Made by a program: the position numbers and the translations under genes
Notes under the pieces: generated by a model
Told to the model about the DNA's origin: nothing
The model's database searches: none
What the model saw: the letters and a program-made list of their open reading frames with translations, nothing else
Shown here: piece by piece, positions 3,435 through 60,354 of the stretch
Layout: the number at the start of each line of letters is the position of its first letter
Numbering within the stretch: the first letter of the stretch is position 1
IMG/VR virus record: IMGVR_UViG_3300025769_000006
Source of the DNA: a virus
Reading direction: 5' to 3' (one strand)
DNA: 64,000 nt

Positions 3435-5156
3435 ATGTGGAATAATGAATGGAAAAAAGGAGAAGACTATCCAAGGTGGGGAGACACGGATGTTTACAAA
3501 AAAACTATCTCAGGAGGATATTTACTTGCTGGAGAATCTCCTAAGCAAGCGTATGAAAGAGTATCAAAAACGGTCGCAAGAAGGTTATACAAACCGGAAA
3601 TGGCAGAAAGATTCTTTGAATATATTTGGAATGGTTGGCTTTGCCTTGCTAGTCCTGTTCTTAGTAACACTGGGACTGATAGAGGTCTTCCTATAAGTTG
3701 TTTTGGTATAGACGTCGCGGACAGCATACAAGATATAGGGCATAAAAATTTAGAGATGATGCTACTCGCTAAGCACGGCGGTGGAGTTGGCATTGGCATT
3801 AACATGATTAGACCCGCCGGCGCTAAAATAACAGGGAATGGAACATCAGATGGAGTCGTACCCTTCTGCAAAATATATGACTCAACAATTCTTGCAACTA
3901 ATCAAGGATCTGTCAGACGAGGAGCTGCTTCAGTTAACATTAACATTGAGCACGACGATTTTGAAGAATGGCTTGAAATTAGAGAGCCAAAGGGAGACGT
4001 TAACAGACAGTCGCTTAATCTACATCAATGCGCAGTTGTTGGTGACAAGTTTATGCGTAAGCTTGAACAAGGAGATACGGACGCTAGAAATAGATGGAGT
4101 AAATTACTTAGAAAAAGAAAAGCAACTGGAGAACCGTATATATTATTTAAAGGAAACACTAACAAAAGAAATCCAAAAGCATATAAAGAAAACGGTTTAA
4201 AAGTACATATGACAAATATATGTTCTGAGATCACGTTGCACACTGATGAAAACCATAGTTTTGTTTGCTGTTTATCATCATTAAATTTAGCTAAATATGA
4301 AGAATGGAAAGGTACAAATCTTATATACGACGCCACTTGGTTTCTTGATGGCGTTATGGAGGAATTTATTCAAAGAGCAAAAGGACTTAGAGGTTTTGAA
4401 AACGCGGTTCGTAGTGCTACAAAAGGAAGAGCACTCGGGTTGGGTGTACTCGGATGGCACACGTATCTCCAAGAAAACGGAGTACCTTTTGAAGGTCTAC
4501 TTGCTCAGTTTGAAACTAGGAAAATATTTTCGCAAATTAAAATTGAAAGTGAAAGAGCTTCCAGGGATCTTGCTGAAATTTATGGCGAGCCTTTGTGGTG
4601 TGTTGGTACTGGTGTGCGCAATACTCACCTTCGCGCTATTGCTCCCACTGTATCTAATAGTAAGCTTTCGGGCAATGTATCTCCGGGTATTGAGCCGTGG
4701 GCGGCAAACGTATTTACAGAGCAATCTGCTAAAGGAACGTTTATAAGAAAAAATCCTACATTATTAAAACTATTAAGAAAACTTAAAATAAATAACAATG
4801 AAACTTGGGACAAAATTTTGGCAGATGGTGGTAGTGTTCAAGGTTTATCTGAGCTTGACGGGATTGTGGTTGGGCCTCATGATATACCGGCTAAAGAAGT
4901 ATTTAAAACTTTCAAGGAAATAAATCAGTTAGAGTTGGTTAATCAAGCTGGTATACGTCAGCAATATATAGATCAATCTGTTAGTTTAAATCTAGCTTTT
5001 CCTAGTGTTGCTAAACCTAAATGGATTAATCAAGTTCATATGCAGGCTTGGAAAAATGGTATTAAAACCTTATATTACACAAGGACAGAGTCAGTGCTAA
5101 GAGGAGATATAGCACAACAAGCAATGAGCGAAGATTGTTTGGCTTGTGATGGCTAA
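3435..5156 (+). CDS. nrdA: ribonucleotide reductase class Ia, alpha (R1) subunit, no ATP-cone
   Basis: Active-site blocks NLHQCAVV, TNICSEITL and FVCCLSSLNL are present. The C-terminal redox pair is CLACDG. At 573 aa it starts directly in the all-alpha domain. Confidence 0.95.
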   Translation: MWNNEWKKGEDYPRWGDTDVYKKTISGGYLLAGESPKQAYERVSKTVARRLYKPEMAERFFEYIWNGWLCLASPVLSNTGTDRGLPISCFGIDVADSIQDIGHKNLEMMLLAKHGGGVGIGINMIRPAGAKITGNGTSDGVVPFCKIYDSTILATNQGSVRRGAASVNINIEHDDFEEWLEIREPKGDVNRQSLNLHQCAVVGDKFMRKLEQGDTDARNRWSKLLRKRKATGEPYILFKGNTNKRNPKAYKENGLKVHMTNICSEITLHTDENHSFVCCLSSLNLAKYEEWKGTNLIYDATWFLDGVMEEFIQRAKGLRGFENAVRSATKGRALGLGVLGWHTYLQENGVPFEGLLAQFETRKIFSQIKIESERASRDLAEIYGEPLWCVGTGVRNTHLRAIAPTVSNSKLSGNVSPGIEPWAANVFTEQSAKGTFIRKNPTLLKLLRKLKINNNETWDKILADGGSVQGLSELDGIVVGPHDIPAKEVFKTFKEINQLELVNQAGIRQQYIDQSVSLNLAFPSVAKPKWINQVHMQAWKNGIKTLYYTRTESVLRGDIAQQAMSEDCLACDG

Positions 5157-16263: not shown

Positions 16264-17535
16264 TTAATATGAAGACTCTTTATAATTTGTTGATATAGCG
16301 AACAACTCACTTTTGTCTTGTGCATTACTGCATGTAAAAGTTACTTCTGCAGTATATCCTTTTATTCCTGAAATAGAATTACCAAAAACAATTTCGCCTT
16401 GTGAAAAAGCTGTTGAGTTTACTAAATTAGCAAAATACTTATCTTCTTTTCTTTTAAATTCATTTTTAAATAACTGATCGTCTAGTTCAGTGATTGTTGT
16501 AGGCATAACATACACGGCAACAGGTAAAGCTGAATCACCAGAATTTGTTGATATACTAGTCATAGCCCAATTATTGCCACCTTCGTAATTAATAGTTTGA
16601 AAGTTTTTAATTAATGAAGGTTGAGAATTAAATATAGTTTTAACGCTAGCGTCATATTGTGTTCCGTAAAAATTAGCTCTAGGTAGATTACTTCTATAGT
16701 GTTGATATATACCTCCTTCGCTTGTTGTGTAAAAATTATTTTGCACACTAACCACATTGTTAGGGCTATAGCTATATCTACTAGTCCAACCTTGAACTTG
16801 TTCATCAAAACTAAGTGTTTGAACTGGAGTTCCTGATGCTGCAGATTGCAGCGATAATGTATAGCACTTATTATGTATATCCCAACCTCCAATAGAAAGT
16901 CCACCGCTTAAAGTTGCGAAATTATCTCTAAAATAATCATACATACCATAAGCTGATATTTCTGTTATACCGTCTTGCGATAATCTAAGTACAGCGCCTT
17001 GATTAGAGTCTGTAAAATATTTTCTATAACCATACACCGCAAAGCTTTCAGGGTTTTTTGATATACCAAATTCACCAGCATATGGCGTTATAGCTCCAAT
17101 AACAACATTTGAAGCTGTTTGTATAGGTTGACCTTCTTGCGTATATATAGCGTCTTTATCTATAAGAGCTCTGTTAACTTTATTTTCTTGGAATATAATT
17201 AAATTAGTATCTTCAGCGTAAAGCTTTTGTACAGTACCTTTTTGGGGGTCAACAGTTCTAGTTATTTCTTCACCAGATGGAAATTGATTGGTTTGATTCA
17301 CACCTGTTCTAGAGTTTAATATACCTGAATATATTAAAGAATTACCAAGTTCTTCTTGTAAATTATCTTCAGCTCTTAAATAAGCTCTAGGTGATAAACC
17401 CGTTTGAACGTTATTATAACCACCTCTAATTCTAGCTTCTTCTATGTACCAGTTGTAAATAGGTGAAACATCTCCTTGTATTATTTTTTTCAAAACAAAG
17501 GTATTGTAGTATTTTACTGGTGTTTTTACTGCCAT
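16264..17535 (-). CDS. structural protein (423 aa), tail-associated candidate
   Basis: ORF track entry in the late operon; preceded by a TAATTATAC-TATAGT-ATG box. Confidence 0.4.
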   Translation of the reverse strand: MAVKTPVKYYNTFVLKKIIQGDVSPIYNWYIEEARIRGGYNNVQTGLSPRAYLRAEDNLQEELGNSLIYSGILNSRTGVNQTNQFPSGEEITRTVDPQKGTVQKLYAEDTNLIIFQENKVNRALIDKDAIYTQEGQPIQTASNVVIGAITPYAGEFGISKNPESFAVYGYRKYFTDSNQGAVLRLSQDGITEISAYGMYDYFRDNFATLSGGLSIGGWDIHNKCYTLSLQSAASGTPVQTLSFDEQVQGWTSRYSYSPNNVVSVQNNFYTTSEGGIYQHYRSNLPRANFYGTQYDASVKTIFNSQPSLIKNFQTINYEGGNNWAMTSISTNSGDSALPVAVYVMPTTITELDDQLFKNEFKRKEDKYFANLVNSTAFSQGEIVFGNSISGIKGYTAEVTFTCSNAQDKSELFAISTNYKESSY

Positions 17536-27203: not shown

Positions 27204-28412
27204 TTAGTTAAATTTTTTTCTTCTTATTTTAAGTTTTGAAGAATCAGCACCACTTATAGCTTTAACTTTTAATCCGTTAACAAAAACATTTCCATTAGTA
27301 CCTTCTTGTCTTGGTTCTGTAGTTATGTTTTTTGACTTAGCAACGACATCTTTTACAGCATCGGCTTTGCCTTGTTCATAAAAGTGTTTAGCTATTGTAT
27401 CTGCGTTTCTAGCAGCATACATGGCTTTGTGGTAACCCTTTGGATTAATTAGTTCATTATTTTCATTTAAGAACGTCTTAACAAAATCTGTAATGTCTAA
27501 TTGGTTTTTAACAACATCATTAGGATTTTTAATTCCGTATCTAAAGTTTTTATCTCCTAAGTTAAAATCGAAACCTTCGAAATTTTCATTAAAAGTATCT
27601 TTAGTTACTTTTTCAAAAGCTTGACGCTGTTGAGTTACTTTTTGTTGATCTTCATTGTATCTATTAAAAAAGTCCATTGCTTTTTGTTGGTCTTCATTAA
27701 CTGATGATTTCAACTTGATTTCATCATAGTATTTATTTTTCAAACCTTCTAAAAAGCTTTTGGCTTTTCCAATTTCTTCTTTATATGCTAGTTTCTTTTT
27801 TCTAACATCTTTTTCGTCATCTAGTTCTTCATCATATGAAAAATTATCTTCTAATAAAAAATTAACTTCTTCATATTCTAAGTGTGGACGAGTATTTCTG
27901 TAATATTCTCTGAGTAAAGTGTTGTTGTCTATATTGTCATAATTAGCGTTTAATCTAACATAATCCTCTATAGTAGCCCCTGGCATTTCTTCCATAAAAG
28001 AAACTAATTTTTCAATGTTTTCAGGTAGTTTTTTTCCTAACACCTTTTCATCTCTTATTGCTTCTTTTACTTCTTGTTCAACTTTTTTTGTTTCTTCTTC
28101 TACTTTCTGCACTTCTTTAATAGGACTTTCAATGGGCTTTTCGTCTCCTTGTCCCACTTCTTGCAGTCCCACCTCGGGTCTTTCTTCGCGTAGCACGCTG
28201 CTCTCTGTTTCTGATTTTTGAACGGCATTTTCTTCTTGTTTTACTTTACTCAAATCAACCTTTACTGGTTCTTCTTTTTTAGCAACAGCTGCAAAATCTA
28301 TTTTTATTGTTTCTTCTGGAGCTGATAATTTTTTAGGTGTTTTTCTTTTTTGTTTTAACTTAAAGTCACCTTCCTGTTTAACAGGTTCATTTGTTTTTGT
28401 TTCTTCTGACAT
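27204..28412 (-). CDS. putative scaffolding protein
   Basis: A 402-aa, very E/K-rich, predicted-helical protein lying between the portal and capsid genes. Confidence 0.55.
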   Translation of the reverse strand: MSEETKTNEPVKQEGDFKLKQKRKTPKKLSAPEETIKIDFAAVAKKEEPVKVDLSKVKQEENAVQKSETESSVLREERPEVGLQEVGQGDEKPIESPIKEVQKVEEETKKVEQEVKEAIRDEKVLGKKLPENIEKLVSFMEEMPGATIEDYVRLNANYDNIDNNTLLREYYRNTRPHLEYEEVNFLLEDNFSYDEELDDEKDVRKKKLAYKEEIGKAKSFLEGLKNKYYDEIKLKSSVNEDQQKAMDFFNRYNEDQQKVTQQRQAFEKVTKDTFNENFEGFDFNLGDKNFRYGIKNPNDVVKNQLDITDFVKTFLNENNELINPKGYHKAMYAARNADTIAKHFYEQGKADAVKDVVAKSKNITTEPRQEGTNGNVFVNGLKVKAISGADSSKLKIRRKKFN

Positions 28413-28445: not shown

Positions 28446-30860
28446 TTATCTAGGATCAAATTGCTCTAATCCAAAACCTCCTAAATTGTCAAATCCTGCT
28501 GATTCAAAATCTTGAGGTAGTGTGTTGTTTTGTCTTTGATTTATTAGCTTTGACTCTTGAGTTCCTTGCATCTTTATTCTATTGTCTTTTCTATCTTCTA
28601 TCTCTTGTTCTTTAGTTGTTTCAGCTCTAGATTTTATTTGTGCAAGCTGCATGTTGTAACTAAACTCTTCAGCCATTAAACCTTTTTTTATTTCTGCTTC
28701 TTGAAGCATTTTTTGCATTTCAAGTTGCATTTTAGAAGTTTCTATTTGTATAGTTGTTTCGGCTAAAGCTTGTTGTTTTTGCATTTCTGCAGTTATAGCA
28801 GCTTCTGAAGCTTGAGCGTTAGCCTGCGCTTGAGCCTGAATATTAGCTTGTTGATTTGCTTGATCTTGTCTAGCTTTTGCTTTTCTTTTTTGTTTTAACA
28901 GAGCGTTTGCTAGTTTTATATTTTTTACTTGTCTAATGTCTATGGCATCATCTAAATCTATTCCACCTGACTGTAAAGCTATTTGTATGTTTTGCTCTAA
29001 TTGAGCTTTAGCTTCTTCGTCTGGTTCTAATTCTAAGAATATTCCAAAATCTTGTAGATTTTTTTCTTGCAACTCCTCTAGTGTACCAGTATTGTACGAT
29101 GATATAGAATCTATTAAAGCAGCTCTAGTTAACGGATATTCTAAAGCATCAGCTATTCTTAGCGCTATGTTTTCACAAGTTCTTAAAGTTAGATATAAAC
29201 CACCTTGCATAACATGTCTTAGCGCTGTGTTTGAGTTTGCTGCAGCTAATTTCTGTAAACCTACAAGCGCATCTTTACTAGGCGTGCTAGCATCAGACGC
29301 TTCATTCAGACCTGTTACGTCGCGTATCATTTGTAAATAATACTGATATGTTTGTATTAAACTTTGTATTTTAGCACCACCATTACTAGTTTGAAGTTCT
29401 TGAATAGGAACTTTACCTCTATTCAAATCACCATCTTGTGTCATAGATCTTCCAACTATAGAACCAGTTTGAAAATACATATTTAAAGCTTCAGAAGCGT
29501 TGTAGTTTGTGCCATTACCAAGATCAACCTCAGCTAAACCATCTACATCAACAAAAACCCCGTCTGGTACCATTCTAGATAGTACTTGTTGTAGTTTTAA
29601 ATGAGTAAGTTGTATTATGTCCGCAAAACCTGTTATTCTACTAACTGTAGACTCTATCATTCCTTTATACATTCTAGGAGCGCATATAGAATAATTCATG
29701 TTAACTTTAGTTAGATTTGAATTTGGTCGCGTCATGTTTTCAGACATTTTCCACTCTAACATCATTTCATGTCCTAATATTTTAGCGCCAGTATATAAAA
29801 CCTCTATACTTCTACCCACTCTTTCAAAGTTATCGTTTGGTTGTGGATTAAAAGTATCTGGCTTTTCTAATGCTTTTTCAAGACCTTGATCAGTTTGTTT
29901 TATTTTAAATATTTGATTACTGTAAGTTTTGTATTCAAAATATAAAACTTGAACTTGATTATACGAATCTTGTTGCGCATAAAAGTTTCTAGTATAATTA
30001 GCGTCTCCAGGAAATTTTTCAATTTTTTCTAATTCAGCATCTGATAAACCAGGAAATTGCTTTTTTAATTCAACTAAACTTATTGATTTAACTTCTCCAG
30101 CGTAATATATATCATCAAAATTTGGATCTTCTGTATAAGAATAAACTAAATTAGCAGGATCTACGTAGTTAACTGTAACGCCATTAGCCAAATTAAAATC
30201 AGTTTTTACAGCTCCTATTCCTATTATAGTTAAATCTTGTATTAATCTCTTTTTTATTAAATCATATTTATTATAAGCTAAAACATTTTCAATAGCCTCT
30301 TCTTCGGCTATTTCTATTGACTGTTTGTAGCTTAATTGCATGTGTAAGTCCAACTCCTGTTGAGTTTCAGGCAAATTGTCTGTGTCATTAGTGTTAAAGA
30401 AATTCATGCCTGTGGCTTGATTTGTAGCTTCAATTATTTCTTTAGCATACATATCACGCATTATAGCGTCTGCATATTTTGTTCTTTTCTTTAATGACTC
30501 TGGATCTTGAGCAAAAGCTTTAATATCAAATATTTTTTGCGACATTCCATTTACTATAATATCAACAAATTTTGGTATTATTGGAACAGGTTTCCAGTCT
30601 AAGTTTAAGTAAGATAAATCGCCATTGACAGCTAATTCATCTTTATATTTTTGAACAGGTTGTTCGCCTCTTGCGTAGAGTCTTAATCTGTGAAAGTTTA
30701 ACCAACTATTTTGATATCTATTACCTAAACCCCCTCTATCTCCAGAAAACCACTCTCCTTCAATAGCTCTACCCACGGCGTAACCATAATCATAACTTTG
30801 CTTTTCTTCATCAGATACAACCTGACTAGGAAACGAACCTGCGTAATTAGTGTAAATCAT
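28446..30860 (-). CDS. putative portal protein (804 aa)
   Basis: Immediately downstream of, and abutting, the large terminase gene. It has a Q/A-rich C-terminal coiled coil. Size and synteny fit a portal. Confidence 0.6.
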   Translation of the reverse strand: MIYTNYAGSFPSQVVSDEEKQSYDYGYAVGRAIEGEWFSGDRGGLGNRYQNSWLNFHRLRLYARGEQPVQKYKDELAVNGDLSYLNLDWKPVPIIPKFVDIIVNGMSQKIFDIKAFAQDPESLKKRTKYADAIMRDMYAKEIIEATNQATGMNFFNTNDTDNLPETQQELDLHMQLSYKQSIEIAEEEAIENVLAYNKYDLIKKRLIQDLTIIGIGAVKTDFNLANGVTVNYVDPANLVYSYTEDPNFDDIYYAGEVKSISLVELKKQFPGLSDAELEKIEKFPGDANYTRNFYAQQDSYNQVQVLYFEYKTYSNQIFKIKQTDQGLEKALEKPDTFNPQPNDNFERVGRSIEVLYTGAKILGHEMMLEWKMSENMTRPNSNLTKVNMNYSICAPRMYKGMIESTVSRITGFADIIQLTHLKLQQVLSRMVPDGVFVDVDGLAEVDLGNGTNYNASEALNMYFQTGSIVGRSMTQDGDLNRGKVPIQELQTSNGGAKIQSLIQTYQYYLQMIRDVTGLNEASDASTPSKDALVGLQKLAAANSNTALRHVMQGGLYLTLRTCENIALRIADALEYPLTRAALIDSISSYNTGTLEELQEKNLQDFGIFLELEPDEEAKAQLEQNIQIALQSGGIDLDDAIDIRQVKNIKLANALLKQKRKAKARQDQANQQANIQAQAQANAQASEAAITAEMQKQQALAETTIQIETSKMQLEMQKMLQEAEIKKGLMAEEFSYNMQLAQIKSRAETTKEQEIEDRKDNRIKMQGTQESKLINQRQNNTLPQDFESAGFDNLGGFGLEQFDPR

Positions 30861-41544: not shown

Positions 41545-41801
41545 ACAACAACGACCACGTCTTGTGACTTTATAACGTGATATATATTTTTTTCAAACTC
41601 TATTTTATGACCAGCGTGTCTATCAAAAAATATTTCATCATTTTCTTTAACACCATCAACTTCATTTCCAACTGATATTACTAGTGCTCTTCTGTATCTT
41701 AAATCATTTTTTTGATTTTCAGAAAGAAGTAAACCACCTTTTGTTTCTGTAGTTCCTTCTTTTTTGACTAATATTATTAAGTTTCTACCTATTGCTTTCA
41801 T
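41541..41801 (-). CDS. groES: co-chaperonin GroES-like (Cpn10)
   Basis: At 86 aa: LIILVKKEGTTETKGGLLLSE (mobile-loop pattern) ..ALVISVGNEV..NDEIFF..IYHVIKSQDVVVVV. Confidence 0.75.
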   Translation of the reverse strand: MKAIGRNLIILVKKEGTTETKGGLLLSENQKNDLRYRRALVISVGNEVDGVKENDEIFFDRHAGHKIEFEKNIYHVIKSQDVVVVV

Positions 41802-43341
41802 TTATTCTAACGTTATTTATTACACAATTAGTAGAAAGTATAGTAGTTGCTACAGAAGCCGCATTTTTTAATGCACTTTTAGTAACTAATAGTGGATCTA
41901 TAATTCCACTTTTAATCATATTAACCATTTTTCCTGTAACCACGTCGTAACCTTGACCCTTTTTATAAGGATAATCTAAGTTATCAACACCTGCATTAGA
42001 AAGAATAGTTCTATAAGGTGCGGTTATAGCACTTAACAACAGTCGTTCGCCTAATGAATAAGCTTTAACTTTTTGAGAAGCGTTTAGAAGCGCAATACCA
42101 CCACCTGGAACAATACCTTCTTTAACAGCGGCTTTTGTAGCACAGATAGCGTCTTCCACTCTATCCATTTTTTCTTTAAGTTCTATTTCAGAATTAGCTC
42201 CAACTTTTACTACAGATATCCTAGATGAAAGCATTGCTAATCTTTTTTCTAAACTTATTACTTGATCAGGTATTTTACAAGTTATAAGCTTTTTTTCTAT
42301 ATCTTTGATTATCTCAGCACATTCATGGCTTTGCTCTTTAAACTGTAATATAGTATCTGTTTGGCTGGTTATAGACTTAAAACATGTACCTAGATGATCT
42401 ATTTCTATTAAATCCATATCATCACCTAAATCTTCGTTTATTAACGTCGCTCCTGTTAGCAAAGAAAGATCATCAAACATTTGTTTTCTATTTACACCTA
42501 ACACAGGTGCATCTATAACATTAACTTTTATATTTCCTTTTGTTTTATTCATTGCTAATGCTGATAAAACCTCAGGACTTAAATCTGCTATTATTAAAAG
42601 TGATTTATTGTTTTTTATAACATATTCTAAAACACTTTGTATCTGTCTTATGTTTTCAACATTATTTTCTACTAATAAAACAAGAGGGTTGTTTAACTCT
42701 GCAGTCTTTTTAATTTTATTAGTAACAAAATGAGGACTTGTTAGACCTTTAAAATATTGAGAACCTTCTATTGTTTCTATTTCTGTTTTACCAGAATCAG
42801 ATTGTTCCATTATAACTACACCTGTATTTTTTACATTTTCAAATGCTTTACCTATTAACTCTCCTAACTCTTTATCATTGTTTGTTGATATAGTAGCTAT
42901 TTGTTTTATCATTTCATCTTTAACAGGTAAAGATATTTTATTTAAATAATCAACAACTCTATTAACAGATTTATTTATATCTTCTTTTAGCTCTCTTACA
43001 CTAAGTTCTGATTTAACTTTATTTGCTTCATAAAGTATTGAGTGAGCTAAAACAGTAGCTGTGGTAGTGCCATCACCCGCTTCTTTAACAGTTTTTTTTG
43101 CGGCTTGTTTTAACAAGTTGCAACCTAAATTTTCTACCGGATCTATTAACACTACGCTTTCAGCAACTGTTACACCATCTTTTGTTATTGTTGGATTTCC
43201 ATATTGATCTTCTAGCAAAACACAGCTACCACCAGCGCCGAGCGTTGAACTAACCGCGTTTGCTAACTTGTCAATACCATTAAAAACTTTATTCCTAGCA
43301 TCGTCTCCAAAACTAAGATTTTTAACTATCTTGTCTGACAT
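41785..43341 (-). CDS. groEL: group I chaperonin GroEL-like
   Basis: ITKDGVTVA, EAGDGTTTATVLA (ATP site) and VPGGGIALL are present. At 518 aa it has no GGM tail. Confidence 0.9.
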   Translation of the reverse strand: MSDKIVKNLSFGDDARNKVFNGIDKLANAVSSTLGAGGSCVLLEDQYGNPTITKDGVTVAESVVLIDPVENLGCNLLKQAAKKTVKEAGDGTTTATVLAHSILYEANKVKSELSVRELKEDINKSVNRVVDYLNKISLPVKDEMIKQIATISTNNDKELGELIGKAFENVKNTGVVIMEQSDSGKTEIETIEGSQYFKGLTSPHFVTNKIKKTAELNNPLVLLVENNVENIRQIQSVLEYVIKNNKSLLIIADLSPEVLSALAMNKTKGNIKVNVIDAPVLGVNRKQMFDDLSLLTGATLINEDLGDDMDLIEIDHLGTCFKSITSQTDTILQFKEQSHECAEIIKDIEKKLITCKIPDQVISLEKRLAMLSSRISVVKVGANSEIELKEKMDRVEDAICATKAAVKEGIVPGGGIALLNASQKVKAYSLGERLLLSAITAPYRTILSNAGVDNLDYPYKKGQGYDVVTGKMVNMIKSGIIDPLLVTKSALKNAASVATTILSTNCVINNVRINESNR

Positions 43342-54257: not shown

Positions 54258-54452
54258 ATGTATTGTAAATGTAAACCAAATACTAAAATACCCGAAGCTC
54301 GAGTAGCTTTAGGTTATAAGACATGTGTTGATTGTTCTACTGCTGAGCAATATAGTTATGTACCAATAATCAACCATAAAACTGGCAATACTATTCAAAT
54401 AGTAAGTCAATCACTCTCCGCCGCGGTGCATAGGTCGTGGCGGCGTAAATAG
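54258..54452 (+). CDS. C4 zinc-finger protein, DksA/TraR-like
   Basis: CKC..(17 aa incl. IPEARVALGYKT)..CVDC is a spacing and context reminiscent of phage TraR. Confidence 0.45.
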   Translation: MYCKCKPNTKIPEARVALGYKTCVDCSTAEQYSYVPIINHKTGNTIQIVSQSLSAAVHRSWRRK

Positions 54453-54584
54453 ATAATCTAGAAGCTTAAGACATAGCTAGATATCTACAGCTAGACGAGT
54501 AGCTTAATTAGGTGTGTATGTGGCGACGACTATCGACGGATATATGTGATCATACGGAAGTGTATTACACACACATAAGTGAAT

Positions 54585-54682
54585 AGCTAGCGGCAACTAG
54601 GTATGGATGCAACAGGAGTTATTAAATTAACCAGAGTTCATTACTACTGACGAGTATGAGGGTTCGATTCCCTCGCTAGTTA
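54585..54682 (+). tRNA. tRNA-like element 1 (98 nt; acceptor and T-arm canonical, remainder not foldable as a cloverleaf; anticodon unassigned)
   Basis: AGCTAGC 54585-91 pairs 7/7 (one G-T) with GCTAGTT 54675-81. The T-arm is GAGGG-TTCGATT-CCCTC at 54658-74, the discriminator is A, and no CCA is encoded. Confidence 0.35.
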
Positions 54683-54772: not shown

Positions 54773-54879
54773 GGGCGTGAAATGGTTAGACTACAAAATA
54801 GGTGGGCGAATGCCGTAAAGATACCGCGAGGAGCGGTACCTAAATTGTAGTAACGCAGGTTCGATTCCTGCCACGTCCA
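54773..54879 (+). tRNA. tRNA-like element 2 (107 nt; tmRNA-TLD-like: acceptor + T-arm + long helix, no D-stem)
   Basis: GGGCGTG 54773-79 pairs 7/7 (one G-T) with CACGTCC 54872-78. The T-arm is GCAGG-TTCGATT-CCTGC at 54855-71. There is a 12-position helix 54791-802 / 54839-850 and two inner hairpins. Confidence 0.4.
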
Positions 54880-54899
54880 CTAATTTTAAATAAACAACT

Positions 54900-55061
54900 A
54901 TGAAATACCTTTATGAACAACTAGACGAATTGTTAAACACTATTAAGTATGCAGAAGCATCGGGAAATGAAGACGCAGATTACTTAAAAAACGATTACTT
55001 TATAGACGTTTTAGAAGCATGTAGAGAAATTGTAGAATACACATCAGAAGAAAAAGAATAA
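54900..55061 (+). CDS. microprotein (53 aa), not in ORF track
   Basis: MKYLYEQLDELLNTIKYAEASGNEDADYLKNDYFIDVLEACREIVEYTSEEKE. Confidence 0.4.
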   Translation: MKYLYEQLDELLNTIKYAEASGNEDADYLKNDYFIDVLEACREIVEYTSEEKE

Positions 55062-57014: not shown

Positions 57015-57566
57015 ATGGTCAATGGGTTTATTATGACAGACAATAGCACACTAAACAAATTGTTTAAAGAACATATAGAAGATATAAACAAGTTTATATA
57101 TTCTAAAGTAAAAGATATACATTTAACTAAAGATCTATCTCAAGAAACTTTAATAAAACTTACAAAAGCTTTACGTAAAAAAAACTATGAAGATCAGGGT
57201 AAATTTAAATCTTTTGCATTATGTGTGGCTAATAATATTATAGTAGATTATTATAGAAAAAAGAAACGTAGACCTAAAATGAAAAGATCTGAAACTTATG
57301 ATATATTTTCTAAAATAAAATATGAAGAATTAAATAAAGAAGAATATATTATAAAAGAACAGATGTTAAAAGAAGTTAAACAACTGCTTAATAAAATACC
57401 TAAAAAACTTAGACAAGTATTAATATTAAGGTTTTATAGTAAAATGACTTTTAGGCAAATAGCTAAAGAAACAAACACAAAAATTAATACTGTTCAAGGT
57501 AGATTTAGATACGGAATGGATAGACTAAAACAATTACACGGACTTAACGAGTTATTAAATAGATAA
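57015..57566 (+). CDS. sigma-70 family RNA polymerase sigma factor, ECF-like (regions 2 and 4)
   Basis: Region 2: FKSFALCVANNIIVDYYRKKKR. Region 4: LPKKLRQVLILRFYSKMTFRQIAKETNTKINTVQGRFRYGMDRLKQL. Confidence 0.75.
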   Translation: MVNGFIMTDNSTLNKLFKEHIEDINKFIYSKVKDIHLTKDLSQETLIKLTKALRKKNYEDQGKFKSFALCVANNIIVDYYRKKKRRPKMKRSETYDIFSKIKYEELNKEEYIIKEQMLKEVKQLLNKIPKKLRQVLILRFYSKMTFRQIAKETNTKINTVQGRFRYGMDRLKQLHGLNELLNR

Positions 57567-58995: not shown

Positions 58996-59639
58996 TGTCA
59001 CGTGAAAGAAATATAAAATGGTTAAATGATAGGCATGTTATATACAGGAAAGATCCTGTTAACGATGCGCCAACTATAGAAACCAAGCATTATAAATACT
59101 ATGAAGATGGTACGCACGAGTGTTATCACTTGTTTAATAGCAAGGCTAAGATTACTACGTACAAATCTTTAAAGTGGCATTTTTATGTTTTGTATTTTCT
59201 TAACCAAGACAGACCTGAAGGTTTGCTGCCAACTAGTATTTACGAGTTTATAGCAGATAAAGAAAATGGCTTTGTAACATTTTTTATTAGTGATAAAAAG
59301 CTAAACGAAATGATTGAAGACGTGTTCAATGATGGCGGTGAACCACCTTTAAATAAGAAACGTAAGATAATATTTAAAGACTATAGCGGTTTATCTTTTG
59401 ATCAAAAAATGAGTATTGTAGGTAAATTAATTGGAAGATCAAAACGTGTAAATGAAGAAGCTATATATGAATGTATGCTAGATTTAATTTATTATGGTAA
59501 AAAAATAACTTGGAGTAAAGTTGCAGTTTTGTTAAACTGTTCAGAAAGAACTGTAATAAGAAATATTAATAACGAATTAAAAAAAGAAAAAGAAATATTA
59601 AATGAAGAAATACAACATACAGAATTATATAAGATATAA
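58995..59639 (+). CDS. putative DNA-binding protein (C-terminal HTH)
   Basis: WSKVAVLLNCSERTVIRNINNELKKEKE is HTH-like. Confidence 0.4.
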   Translation: MSRERNIKWLNDRHVIYRKDPVNDAPTIETKHYKYYEDGTHECYHLFNSKAKITTYKSLKWHFYVLYFLNQDRPEGLLPTSIYEFIADKENGFVTFFISDKKLNEMIEDVFNDGGEPPLNKKRKIIFKDYSGLSFDQKMSIVGKLIGRSKRVNEEAIYECMLDLIYYGKKITWSKVAVLLNCSERTVIRNINNELKKEKEILNEEIQHTELYKI

Positions 59640-60354
59640 GGAAGATATTAAATCTTCAATGCCACCTCAAAAATTTTACGATTACTACACGAGAGATGAA
59701 TTAGTTGTTAAATTTATACCTCTTGTTGAAGCCATGGCTAGAAAACAATCAACATCACAACAAGCTGTTGGTGTTTTAACAATAATGGATCTATTTCAAA
59801 TTGGCAGTTTAGCTTTAGTAAAGGCAGTTGATAAATTAGACTGGGAAAGATTAATTGATTCAGAAGATATTGAAAAAACATTAAAAAGCTTTTTTAGTAA
59901 AAGAATAAAAGGTGCTATTAGAAGAAAAATAGATTCATTAAGAGGTAATATAAGAATACCAGAACATAAAATTAATGAAATACGTAAAAACCCTAAAGAC
60001 AAAAAAATGGTTGCTATGTTTTTTAATTCTATGTTTTTAAGTATAGACGCACAGCCTGTTAACGACGAAGAAAATATGATAAATCAAATAGCAGACAAGT
60101 CAGAACCATATAACATACAAATACTTAACATGTATTTAAAGAGTTTAATGAAAAAACATTTAACAGGCATTGAGTATGAGGTTTTAAGATTGTCTTATGG
60201 ACTAGATTGTGAAAAACATTCTGCTAACTATATAGCAGGTAAATTAGGCATAAGAGGTGTTAGCGCATATGTGCGTGTTTCAGAATTAAAAAAACAAGCT
60301 GTACAAAAATTAATAGACAGCGTTGATCACTCGCAAGTGCTTGACTTTCTGTAA
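59602..60354 (+). CDS. sigma-70 family sigma factor-like protein
   Basis: Region-2-like FIPLVEAMARKQ..LFQIGSLALVKAVDKLD. Region 4: YEVLRLSYGLDCEKHSANYIAGKLGIRGVSAYVRVSELKKQAVQKL. An alternative start at 59659 would remove the 38-nt overlap. Confidence 0.65.
   Translation: MKKYNIQNYIRYKEDIKSSMPPQKFYDYYTRDELVVKFIPLVEAMARKQSTSQQAVGVLTIMDLFQIGSLALVKAVDKLDWERLIDSEDIEKTLKSFFSKRIKGAIRRKIDSLRGNIRIPEHKINEIRKNPKDKKMVAMFFNSMFLSIDAQPVNDEENMINQIADKSEPYNIQILNMYLKSLMKKHLTGIEYEVLRLSYGLDCEKHSANYIAGKLGIRGVSAYVRVSELKKQAVQKLIDSVDHSQVLDFL

Follow-up and report, generated by a model that had tools for sequence, protein, structure and literature searches.

A tmRNA tRNA-like domain with interchangeable interiors in a clade of uncultured marine phages

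A transfer-messenger RNA (tmRNA) reduced to its tRNA-like domain (TLD) has previously been listed for one phage, mycobacteriophage DS6A, as "TLD only" (Hudson, Lau and Williams; PMC4131195). A similar TLD-only molecule is reported there to inhibit tmRNA strongly whether or not it can be charged, with titration of SmpB as a possible cause (Mao et al. 2009, cited in PMC4131195). The 2025 update of the tmRNA database has also added forms without a coding sequence (CDS-less) from plastids and mitochondria (PMC11915505). Those of jakobid mitochondria and Mallomonadaceae plastids likewise consist of little beyond the TLD and are retained beside SmpB (PMC11915505), which suggests that a TLD by itself remains able to take part in ribosome rescue. 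However, they are products of genome reduction that replace the sole tmRNA, whereas an RNA made by a phage would work alongside a complete tmRNA of the host or oppose it. Here, we describe an element at positions 54773–54879 (plus strand) of IMG/VR virus record IMGVR_UViG_3300025769_000006, a 64,000-nt stretch of viral DNA (the window), which is related to the TLD of tmRNA and has many relatives in other phages.

The DS6A gene could be located at 28478–28560 of NC_023744, between gp33 and gp34, where it is unannotated in the RefSeq record. On the Rfam tmRNA model it scores 43.2 bits (E 6.6e-14), end to end and below the gathering score, with 20 nt in place of the model's interior and an ACUA trailer. 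Like the window element, it is borne by a phage and combines G3·U70 and A73 with a D-loop analogue, a T arm, a short P2 hairpin in place of an interior of about 300 nt, no tag and an ACUA end. The two phage lineages are unrelated, and the host phylum is Actinomycetota for DS6A versus probably Bacteroidota here. Moreover, DS6A is a single 79-nt case with a 20-nt interior, whereas the present family comprises about 70 variants, in a clade with 457 detectable relatives, and has modular interiors of 0 to about 90 nt. To judge from its sequence, the window element fits the DS6A type of TLD-only or CDS-less tmRNA, having a complete TLD, a short interior and no tag frame. The kind was already known from that single phage example; the novelty lies in the size of the family and in its hypervariable cores. 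Literature searches turned up no account of such TLD-only tmRNAs from phages that are marine or infect flavobacteria. The DS6A genome also encodes an RtcB-type "tRNA splicing ligase" (gp76).

Homology to the tmRNA tRNA-like domain

The Rfam tmRNA model (RF00023) spans the element from end to end (model positions 1–374), with a score of 37.7 bits and an E-value of 3.8e-13 in the 1.6 kb searched; in the alignment, 304 interior positions of the model are replaced by 40 nt. Within the tRNA clan, tmRNA was the best-scoring Rfam family, and no other Rfam family gave a convincing match to the element. No family reached its gathering score in the window (47 for tmRNA), and ARAGORN made no tRNA or tmRNA call across it. 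A preliminary description of this DNA had likened the element to a miniature tmRNA TLD and had proposed ARAGORN and the Infernal tmRNA models as checks; the former was silent, and the latter aligned throughout at a score short of the threshold. Standard annotation tools miss both the element and its family.

Firmer evidence comes from relatives and from full-length tmRNAs. A 79-nt sibling at the same genomic position in another phage (L260) scores 64.7 bits on the Rfam tmRNA model, above the gathering score of 47. The GGGGGUG subfamily, found at this locus in sibling phages, has the layout GGGGGUGAUAUGGUUUUGAC-(P2)-GGAAG-ACAGUUCGAUUCUGU-CCACCUCC-A, and the 64.7 bits at 79 nt are its score. In addition, full-length tmRNAs called by ARAGORN in the unrelated viral contigs L030 and L035 and in the viral contig L052 have an acceptor stem and a T-loop identical to those of the element, and their T stem differs from it by one compensated pair. 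Because a sibling passes the Rfam threshold and full-length viral tmRNAs have the same acceptor stem and T-loop, sequence comparison identifies the element as a tmRNA TLD by homology, beyond mere resemblance. Together with the Rfam alignment and the DS6A architecture, this bears out the likeness first proposed. With canonical tmRNA, which is also borne by Bxz1-type mycobacteriophages, the element thus shares the sequence and structure of the TLD; unlike canonical tmRNA, it has no pseudoknots, resume codon or tag frame. Tags are encoded by the full-length viral tmRNAs of L030 (ANKNQFALAA) and L035 (GNYNLALAA). The idea that the cores of the short elements are remnants of tmRNA interiors was rejected, as they showed no similarity to the interiors of the full-length tmRNAs.

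The element lies in a gap of 447 nt that holds no open reading frame (ORF) of at least 40 aa, between two small plus-strand ORFs (54258–54452 and 54900–55061). Its layout reads GGGCGUG-AAAUGGUUAG-ACUACAA-(48-nt core)-UUGUAGU-AAC-GCAGG UUCGAUU CCUGC-CACGUCC-A-CUA. The 7-bp acceptor stem (GGGCGTG/CACGTCC as DNA) is formed by 54773–54779 and 54872–54878 and is followed by the discriminator A (A73) at 54879; it is 100% paired in the model-based alignment, and its 3:70 pair is a G·U (G3 at 54775, U70 at 54876). The stem, the canonical T arm and the discriminator were all found where the preliminary description had placed them. The D-loop analogue, AAAUGGUUAG (AAATGGTTAG as DNA; 54780–54789), is unpaired and without a D stem, as had been noted, and contains a GG that is near-invariant among relatives; the Rfam alignment sets it against the tmRNA consensus GAucuGGaUUCGAC. 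The P2-like helix, supported by the fold and by covariation, pairs ACUACAA (54790–54796) with UUGUAGU (54845–54851). It is followed by a conserved AAC linker (54852–54854), whose tmRNA counterpart in the Rfam alignment is GGAC, by the T arm GCAGG-UUCGAUU-CCUGC (54855–54871), seen in both the Rfam alignment and the fold, and, beyond the acceptor stem, by the trailer CUA (54880–54882), which encodes no CCA and is common to nearly all relatives and DS6A. The exchangeable core module (54797–54844) is predicted to fold as a three-way junction, AGG-U-(GGGC GAAU GCC)-GUAAAGA-(UACCGC GAGGA GCGGUA)-CCU.

The minimum free energy (MFE) fold of the element has −42.1 kcal/mol (z = −3.8), and none of 200 shuffles folded equally well. 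Both hairpins noticed earlier, GGC-GAAT-GCC and (T)ACCGC-GAGGA-GCGG(TA), are present in it. The 12-position helix with a 2×2 mismatch that had been drawn around them is real as pairing but not as a single helix, since it consists of two stacked ones, P2 and the module's basal TAGG/CCTA, with an AA/AA loop between. A D stem and an anticodon arm are absent from the fold, which is not that of a canonical tRNA (tRNA-Ala). What it does contain are the parts of a tmRNA TLD, namely the 7-bp acceptor with G3·U70 and A73, the stemless D-loop analogue, the T arm and a P2 that replaces the anticodon stem. Where tmRNA has pseudoknots PK1–PK4 or their replacements, the fold, in a kind of prediction that cannot represent pseudoknots, has two simple hairpins; with 40 nt standing for 304 model positions, the earlier caveat that there are no pseudoknots holds.

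Covariation and distribution in a marine phage clade

Exact-pattern scans of IMG/VR yielded 69 distinct elements of 65–149 nt. Their frame, GGGCGUG-AAAUGGUUAG-(P2)-core-(P2')-AAC-GCAGGUUCGAUUCCUGC-CACGUCC-A-CUA, is nearly invariant, and their interiors are entirely different. In one scan the T-loop was fixed together with the 3' strands of both the T stem and the acceptor, so that invariance in those parts is partly built in, while the 5' half was free; the D-loop analogue is kept in relatives although the scan left that part unspecified. A scan with CGTGAAATGGTTAG gave one further member among the matches listed. Copies that share the window's core are 95–98% identical to the window element, whereas the flanking DNA of the same genomes is 63–83% identical.

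The helices were examined in two alignments. One is anchored on the frame, with 7 nt per P2 strand and a placeholder loop, and shows compensatory changes at all seven P2 pairs, with 4–6 pair types each; 69.5% of its cells are paired in register, as against about 40% when the partner strand is slid. Indeed, the P2 helix is occupied by about 50 different sequences across the family. The other alignment, model-derived and less biased, holds 61 distinct sequences, and in it 95.7% of cells are paired versus 41–52% when slid, with compensatory changes at five of seven acceptor pairs, all seven P2 pairs and four of five T-stem pairs. The preliminary description had looked to covariation among relatives for its own test, and all three helices covary. 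The structure of all three is under selection.

G3·U70 is the identity pair of alanyl-tRNA synthetase (AlaRS), an established rule for tRNA-Ala and tmRNA alike. The earlier suggestion that the element carries it proved sound, and the pair is widely kept: among the 61 sequences, position 3:70 is G·U in 54, G-C in four and A-U in three. The neighbouring pair 4:69 is freer (C-G in 47, G-C in seven, A-U in five and U-A in two), and the acceptor stem occurs as GGGCGUG/CACGUCC, GGGAGUG/CACUUCC, GGGGGUG/CACCUCC, GGGUGUG/CACAUCC and GGGCGCG/CGCGUCC. A wobble fixed at exactly 3:70 amid a helix that otherwise covaries by Watson–Crick rules is, as a sequence pattern, what selection for AlaRS recognition predicts. 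The preliminary description had also counted the ACTA rather than ACCA end against the element; this is no problem, because an encoded CCA is absent from every family member, from the DS6A TLD and from tRNA-Met genes that related contigs carry with CTA or CAA trailers (L023 and L031 among others); CCA would thus be a post-transcriptional addition.

Variants of the frame occur as second copies. Sister frames AGGCGUG...CACGCCU-U (G3-C70 and U73) and AGGCGUG...CACGUCU-U are found in the clade genomes L070 (2376–2466), L093 (105–198) and L233 (1768–1861), and L222 (9759–9833), whose clade membership is not established, also carries an AGGCGUG-type sister frame. From their sequences, these TLD-like RNAs probably cannot be alanylated. 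In sibling phages, the main TLD is followed about 1.4–1.7 kb further downstream by elements of 40 nt that consist of the acceptor stem, the D-loop analogue and the T arm only (e.g. GGGCGUAAUGGUUAACACAAGUUCGAUUCUUGUACGUCCA); their 3:70 pair is G3·U70 in L239 (4987–5026) and A3-U70 in L240 (4355–4394), L251 (4290–4329) and L253 (4642–4681).

Comparison by tblastx placed nearly all element loci in a single phage clade, in synteny with kb 50–59 of the window. As a control for the bias of the pattern scans, an alignment of the conserved gene at 59602–60354 was used to retrieve 457 clade relatives, where a search with a single protein query had found none, and the best 80 of the 457 were scanned with a covariance model of the frame. 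Matches of at least about 35 bits occurred in 35 of the 51 clade loci that had at least 7 kb of upstream DNA, always on the gene strand and at a median of 4.7 kb upstream of the marker gene. A marker protein 100% identical to that of the window is encoded by L225 (IMGVR_UViG_3300046425_000186), so that the window probably derives from L225 or from a genome almost the same. Another contig (L006, 9445–10117) joins the end of the window to its start, and the window therefore represents approximately one circularly permuted genome.

Judged by sequence, the clade is a large group of uncultured marine phages, distant kin of isolated Flavobacteriia phages. A virion protein of the window phage shares 41–48% identity with virion proteins from podophages of Flavobacterium, Cellulophaga and Maribacter, and the host phylum is probably Bacteroidota. 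The phage encodes a GroEL-like chaperonin (41785–43341, minus strand), its own sigma-70-family factor (57015–57566, plus strand), a protein with a crAss-type muzzle C-terminal domain (16264–17535, minus strand), a ribonucleotide reductase, a primase-helicase and an ERF recombinase; two proteins of 2453 and 1681 aa have no family assignment or nearly none. Pfam scans covered 46 of about 70 window ORFs, including most of those of SmpB size. The scans with Pfam and PHROGs revealed neither an integrase nor a translation factor in the ORFs that they covered, and no SmpB was found in the window by those Pfam scans or by phmmer on six-frame ORFs with a reconstructed E. coli SmpB query.

Searches beyond the clade gave little, and the element was found in no phage isolate of GenBank. 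BLAST of the region against GenBank phages gave no match, the ORF upstream of the element had no tblastn match, and the 3' frame had no full-length, near-identical match in phage isolates. The TLD is absent from the nearest GenBank relative, MW202828, and the covariance model did not find it in Maribacter phage Panino. The published "tmRNA" of Panino (27557–27889 of PP540027; L307 5558–5890), an ARAGORN "tmRNA*" call, overlaps tRNA-Asp and tRNA-Thr genes and is probably an artefact. When the host was sought through the 3' end of ssrA, the same end was found in no bacterial species genome except in Chloroflexi tmRNAs and phage-like contigs of metagenome-assembled genomes (MAGs). In L106, from a 2.6-Mb contig of an Anaerovoracaceae MAG, the minus strand carries a mini tmRNA-like element of 147 nt that shares the acceptor stem and ends at 5026; this element possibly lies in a prophage and may be an independent case of a TLD-only tmRNA in Bacillota.

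Interchangeable cores and neighbouring RNAs

The interiors of the family are discrete hairpin or junction modules, which recur at 87–100% identity in other clade genomes whose neighbouring genes are about 70% identical, and which are found free-standing, nested in one another or within other frames. The window core itself occurs outside any TLD in five contigs (L065, L031, L269, L092 and L205), and there its two hairpins show compensatory changes, GGC/GCC, AGC/GCU and GGU/ACC in the first and UACCGC/GCGGUA, GACCGC/GCGGUC and UACCA/UGGUA in the second. Core length ranges from 0 to about 90 nt across the family; bare-hairpin TLDs measure 65–70 nt, and some second copies, the 40-nt elements, lack even P2. 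The TLD does not need the 48-nt core, since the cores of its relatives measure 10 to about 90 nt or are missing altogether. As these sequences stand, frame and modules each persist without the other, and the P2 loop would seem to offer the modules a permissive docking site.

The noncoding stretch upstream of the element holds further examples on the plus strand. A free-standing structured module at 54512–54575 is the TLD core of L042 and L049; around it lies a non-tRNA frame, GCUAGACGAGUAGCUUAAUUAGG...ACAUAAGUGAAUAGCUAGC (54487–54594), which in L065 and L031 encloses the module that is the window's TLD core. A second anticodon-less tRNA-like RNA, AACUAGG-UAUGG-(core)-CUACUGACGAGUAU-GAGGG UUCGAUU CCCUC-GCUAGUU-A, follows at 54595–54682, 90 nt upstream of the element and in the same noncoding RNA cluster. 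It is not a TLD; the covariance model of the frame matches its T arm only, and its 3:70 pair is C-G and hence not of the Ala type. The AACUAGG frame recurs with different cores and a covarying T stem in eight contigs (L004, L027, L063, L048, L028, L066, L080 and L039). In that upstream element, CUGACGAG was considered as a possible hammerhead, but neither GAAA nor stem II is present, and the idea was dropped.

Another phage group, represented by the unrelated viral contigs L001, L002, L010, L012 and L014, has a class II (Leu/Ser-like) frame, AGUCAGG-UGGCGGAAUUGGUAGACGC-(variable 20–80-nt core)-ACAGGUUCGAAUCCUGU-CCUGACU-A, which in L002 (7183–10209) occurs eight times within 3 kb, adjoining 16 ordinary tRNA genes. 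Such sequences suggest that the swapping of interiors within tRNA-like frames is more widespread among phages. Foreign RNA in tRNA-like frames is known from phage T4, whose tRNA cluster includes the stable RNAs C and D, from the tRNA-miRNA hybrids of gammaherpesviruses and from bacterial YrlA, all of them viral or bacterial cases of tRNA mimicry for a non-decoding RNA; to our knowledge, none has a tmRNA-type D-loop or Ala identity. YrlA differs further in that both termini of the RNA are located in the Ro-binding stem rather than the acceptor stem (YrlA in PMC4201824). It is conceivable, and we put it forward tentatively, that the clade has a combinatorial RNA cassette system, in which a few tRNA-like frames (the Ala-type TLD, the non-Ala frame and, elsewhere, class II) and one non-tRNA frame would present interchangeable modules that are shuffled between frames and genomes. 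The TLD frame may then deliver cargo to SmpB or to the ribosome, or protect it.

Proposed function and competing explanations

The element is best explained as a phage gene for a TLD-only tmRNA, without pseudoknots or a tag message, that would take control of host trans-translation, a reading towards which we lean with modest confidence. Its role is likely to be that of an alanine-accepting decoy or competitor, which would engage host SmpB and stalled ribosomes without tagging. The surroundings of the element show no enrichment of sigma-70 promoter motifs, Bacteroidota −7 motifs or terminators. The RNA would be transcribed together with early genes; in relatives, the element adjoins tRNA-Met. 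The RNA would presumably be excised by RNase P and 3' processing, receive its CCA from the host and be charged with alanine by host AlaRS. It could then bind host SmpB (and EF-Tu) in the place of tmRNA. Having no message on which to resume, it would either titrate SmpB from host tmRNA or enter stalled ribosomes and leave the nascent protein without a degradation tag. In so far as sequence retention is a guide, the kept G·U favours a role that needs charging, i.e. ribosome entry with EF-Tu, over pure titration.

Several points weigh against control of trans-translation. Expression, processing, alanylation and SmpB binding are all steps that we infer. The GAC/GGAC junction of tmRNA is altered to UAG(AC)/AAC in the window's subfamily, which makes the affinity for SmpB uncertain. 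About 10% of members have A3-U70 or G3-C70 and the sister frames have U73, so alanylation is not universal. A possible other use of the tRNA-like frame, for instance in processing or stability, is suggested by the non-Ala tRNA-like neighbour and by the shuffling of the modules. The search through the ssrA 3' end led to no host tmRNA, its matches being limited to those described above. Finally, pure titration of SmpB should make charging dispensable (PMC4131195), which fits poorly with the strong retention of the G·U pair.

The preliminary description had proposed, with the caveat that the open frame may be coincidence, an Ala-initiated tag of 12 codons ending in a double stop, and the element could accordingly be a true two-function mini-tmRNA that adds the peptide AVKIPRGAVPKL. 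The frame GCC(54812)...TTG TAG TAA does exist in the window, and frames of at least 3 aa are slightly commoner in the cores than in shuffled ones (53 versus 42 ± 3.6, in sequences that are not independent). However, among the 69 distinct members, no tag frame, start position or peptide is common to different core types, and AVKIPRGAVPKL recurs solely in near-identical copies of the window's own core. A core frame that starts with G[CG]N and ends in a stop is absent from 12 of the 69; none has an ..LAA ending, and a single "..AA" ending is a chance case. The window frame passes through two stable hairpins and the P2 helix, and neither pseudoknots nor an upstream frame-setting sequence is present. 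To judge from published tmRNA–ribosome structures, a 48-nt loop closed by P2 also seems too small to pass through the mRNA channel. The "double stop" is explained by the frame of the element itself, because TAG sits in the 3' strand of P2 and TAA is made of the last U of P2 and the conserved AAC linker. An mRNA-like domain, with a resume codon and a conserved tag frame with its stop, is thus lacking; the 12-codon "tag" is a coincidence, as the caveat had allowed, and a tagging mini-tmRNA is close to refuted. Just as improbable is an origin by decay of a tmRNA or tRNA-Ala gene, or as part of an attachment site through which the phage would integrate into host ssrA. The gene does lack its interior, and tmRNA genes are common integration sites; this explanation is nevertheless contradicted by conservation and covariation, as the frame is much better conserved than flanking genes and all helices covary. 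In addition, both the 5' and the 3' halves are present, whereas an attP would hold the 3' part of ssrA only; no integrase was found among the ORFs scanned; and the matching ssrA end is in no bacterial genome other than the exceptions already named.

The chief rival, which we hold to be possible and yet distinctly less probable than control of trans-translation, is that the TLD is a tRNA-like chassis for RNA cargo. The frame would provide RNase P/RNase Z processing, CCA addition, nuclease resistance or delivery to a tRNA-binding partner, and the activity would reside in the modules, e.g. as protein-binding decoys or anti-defence RNAs. This would account for hypervariable cores that are discrete structured modules reused at far higher identity than their neighbouring genes, for their free-standing or nested occurrence and their presence in other frames, for the covariation of the window core as a three-way junction in five non-TLD contexts, and for the varying cores of both the non-Ala frame 90 nt upstream and the class II frame of an unrelated phage group. 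Against it, many TLDs are nearly free of cargo (the 65–70-nt bare hairpins and the 40-nt elements with none), so that the frame is evidently retained in its own right; neither a tmRNA-specific D-loop analogue nor G3·U70 would be required of a processing handle; and the modules function, or at least persist, without the frame. The cargo-free copies in turn lend some weight to an alanine-accepting minihelix that acts outside trans-translation, as a sink or regulator of AlaRS, as a source of alanine for some tRNA-dependent aminoacyl transferase, or as a decoy against host defence enzymes that target the acceptor ends of tRNAs. G3·U70 and A73 are the best-kept feature, and G3·U70 is still present in 40-nt second copies made of acceptor and T arm only. 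The other frames (class II-like) also stem from tRNA types that are recognized by their synthetases independently of the anticodon. Still, the likeness is to tmRNA and not to tRNA-Ala, given the missing D stem, the P2 helix, the top-ranking Rfam family and the sibling over threshold, and Pfam scans of 46 window ORFs detected neither an aminoacyl transferase nor a related enzyme; we regard such a minihelix as unlikely.

With this family, a kind of phage gene that rested on DS6A alone becomes a prevalent and strongly conserved one in a large marine phage clade, present in about two-thirds of the 51 checkable loci. Such prevalence and conservation argue that the manipulation of host ribosome rescue is a recurrent phage strategy. 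The approximately 70 natural variants show which positions of the TLD matter, and the retained G3·U70 suggests that charging with alanine is needed, which bears on whether the TLD alone rescues ribosomes or merely blocks their rescue. The plug-in modules represent a separate, undescribed phenomenon and could reveal new small functional RNAs. Should the cassette system prove true, the diversity of the modules would reflect an arms race with host factors, such as RNA-sensing or RNA-cleaving defence systems.

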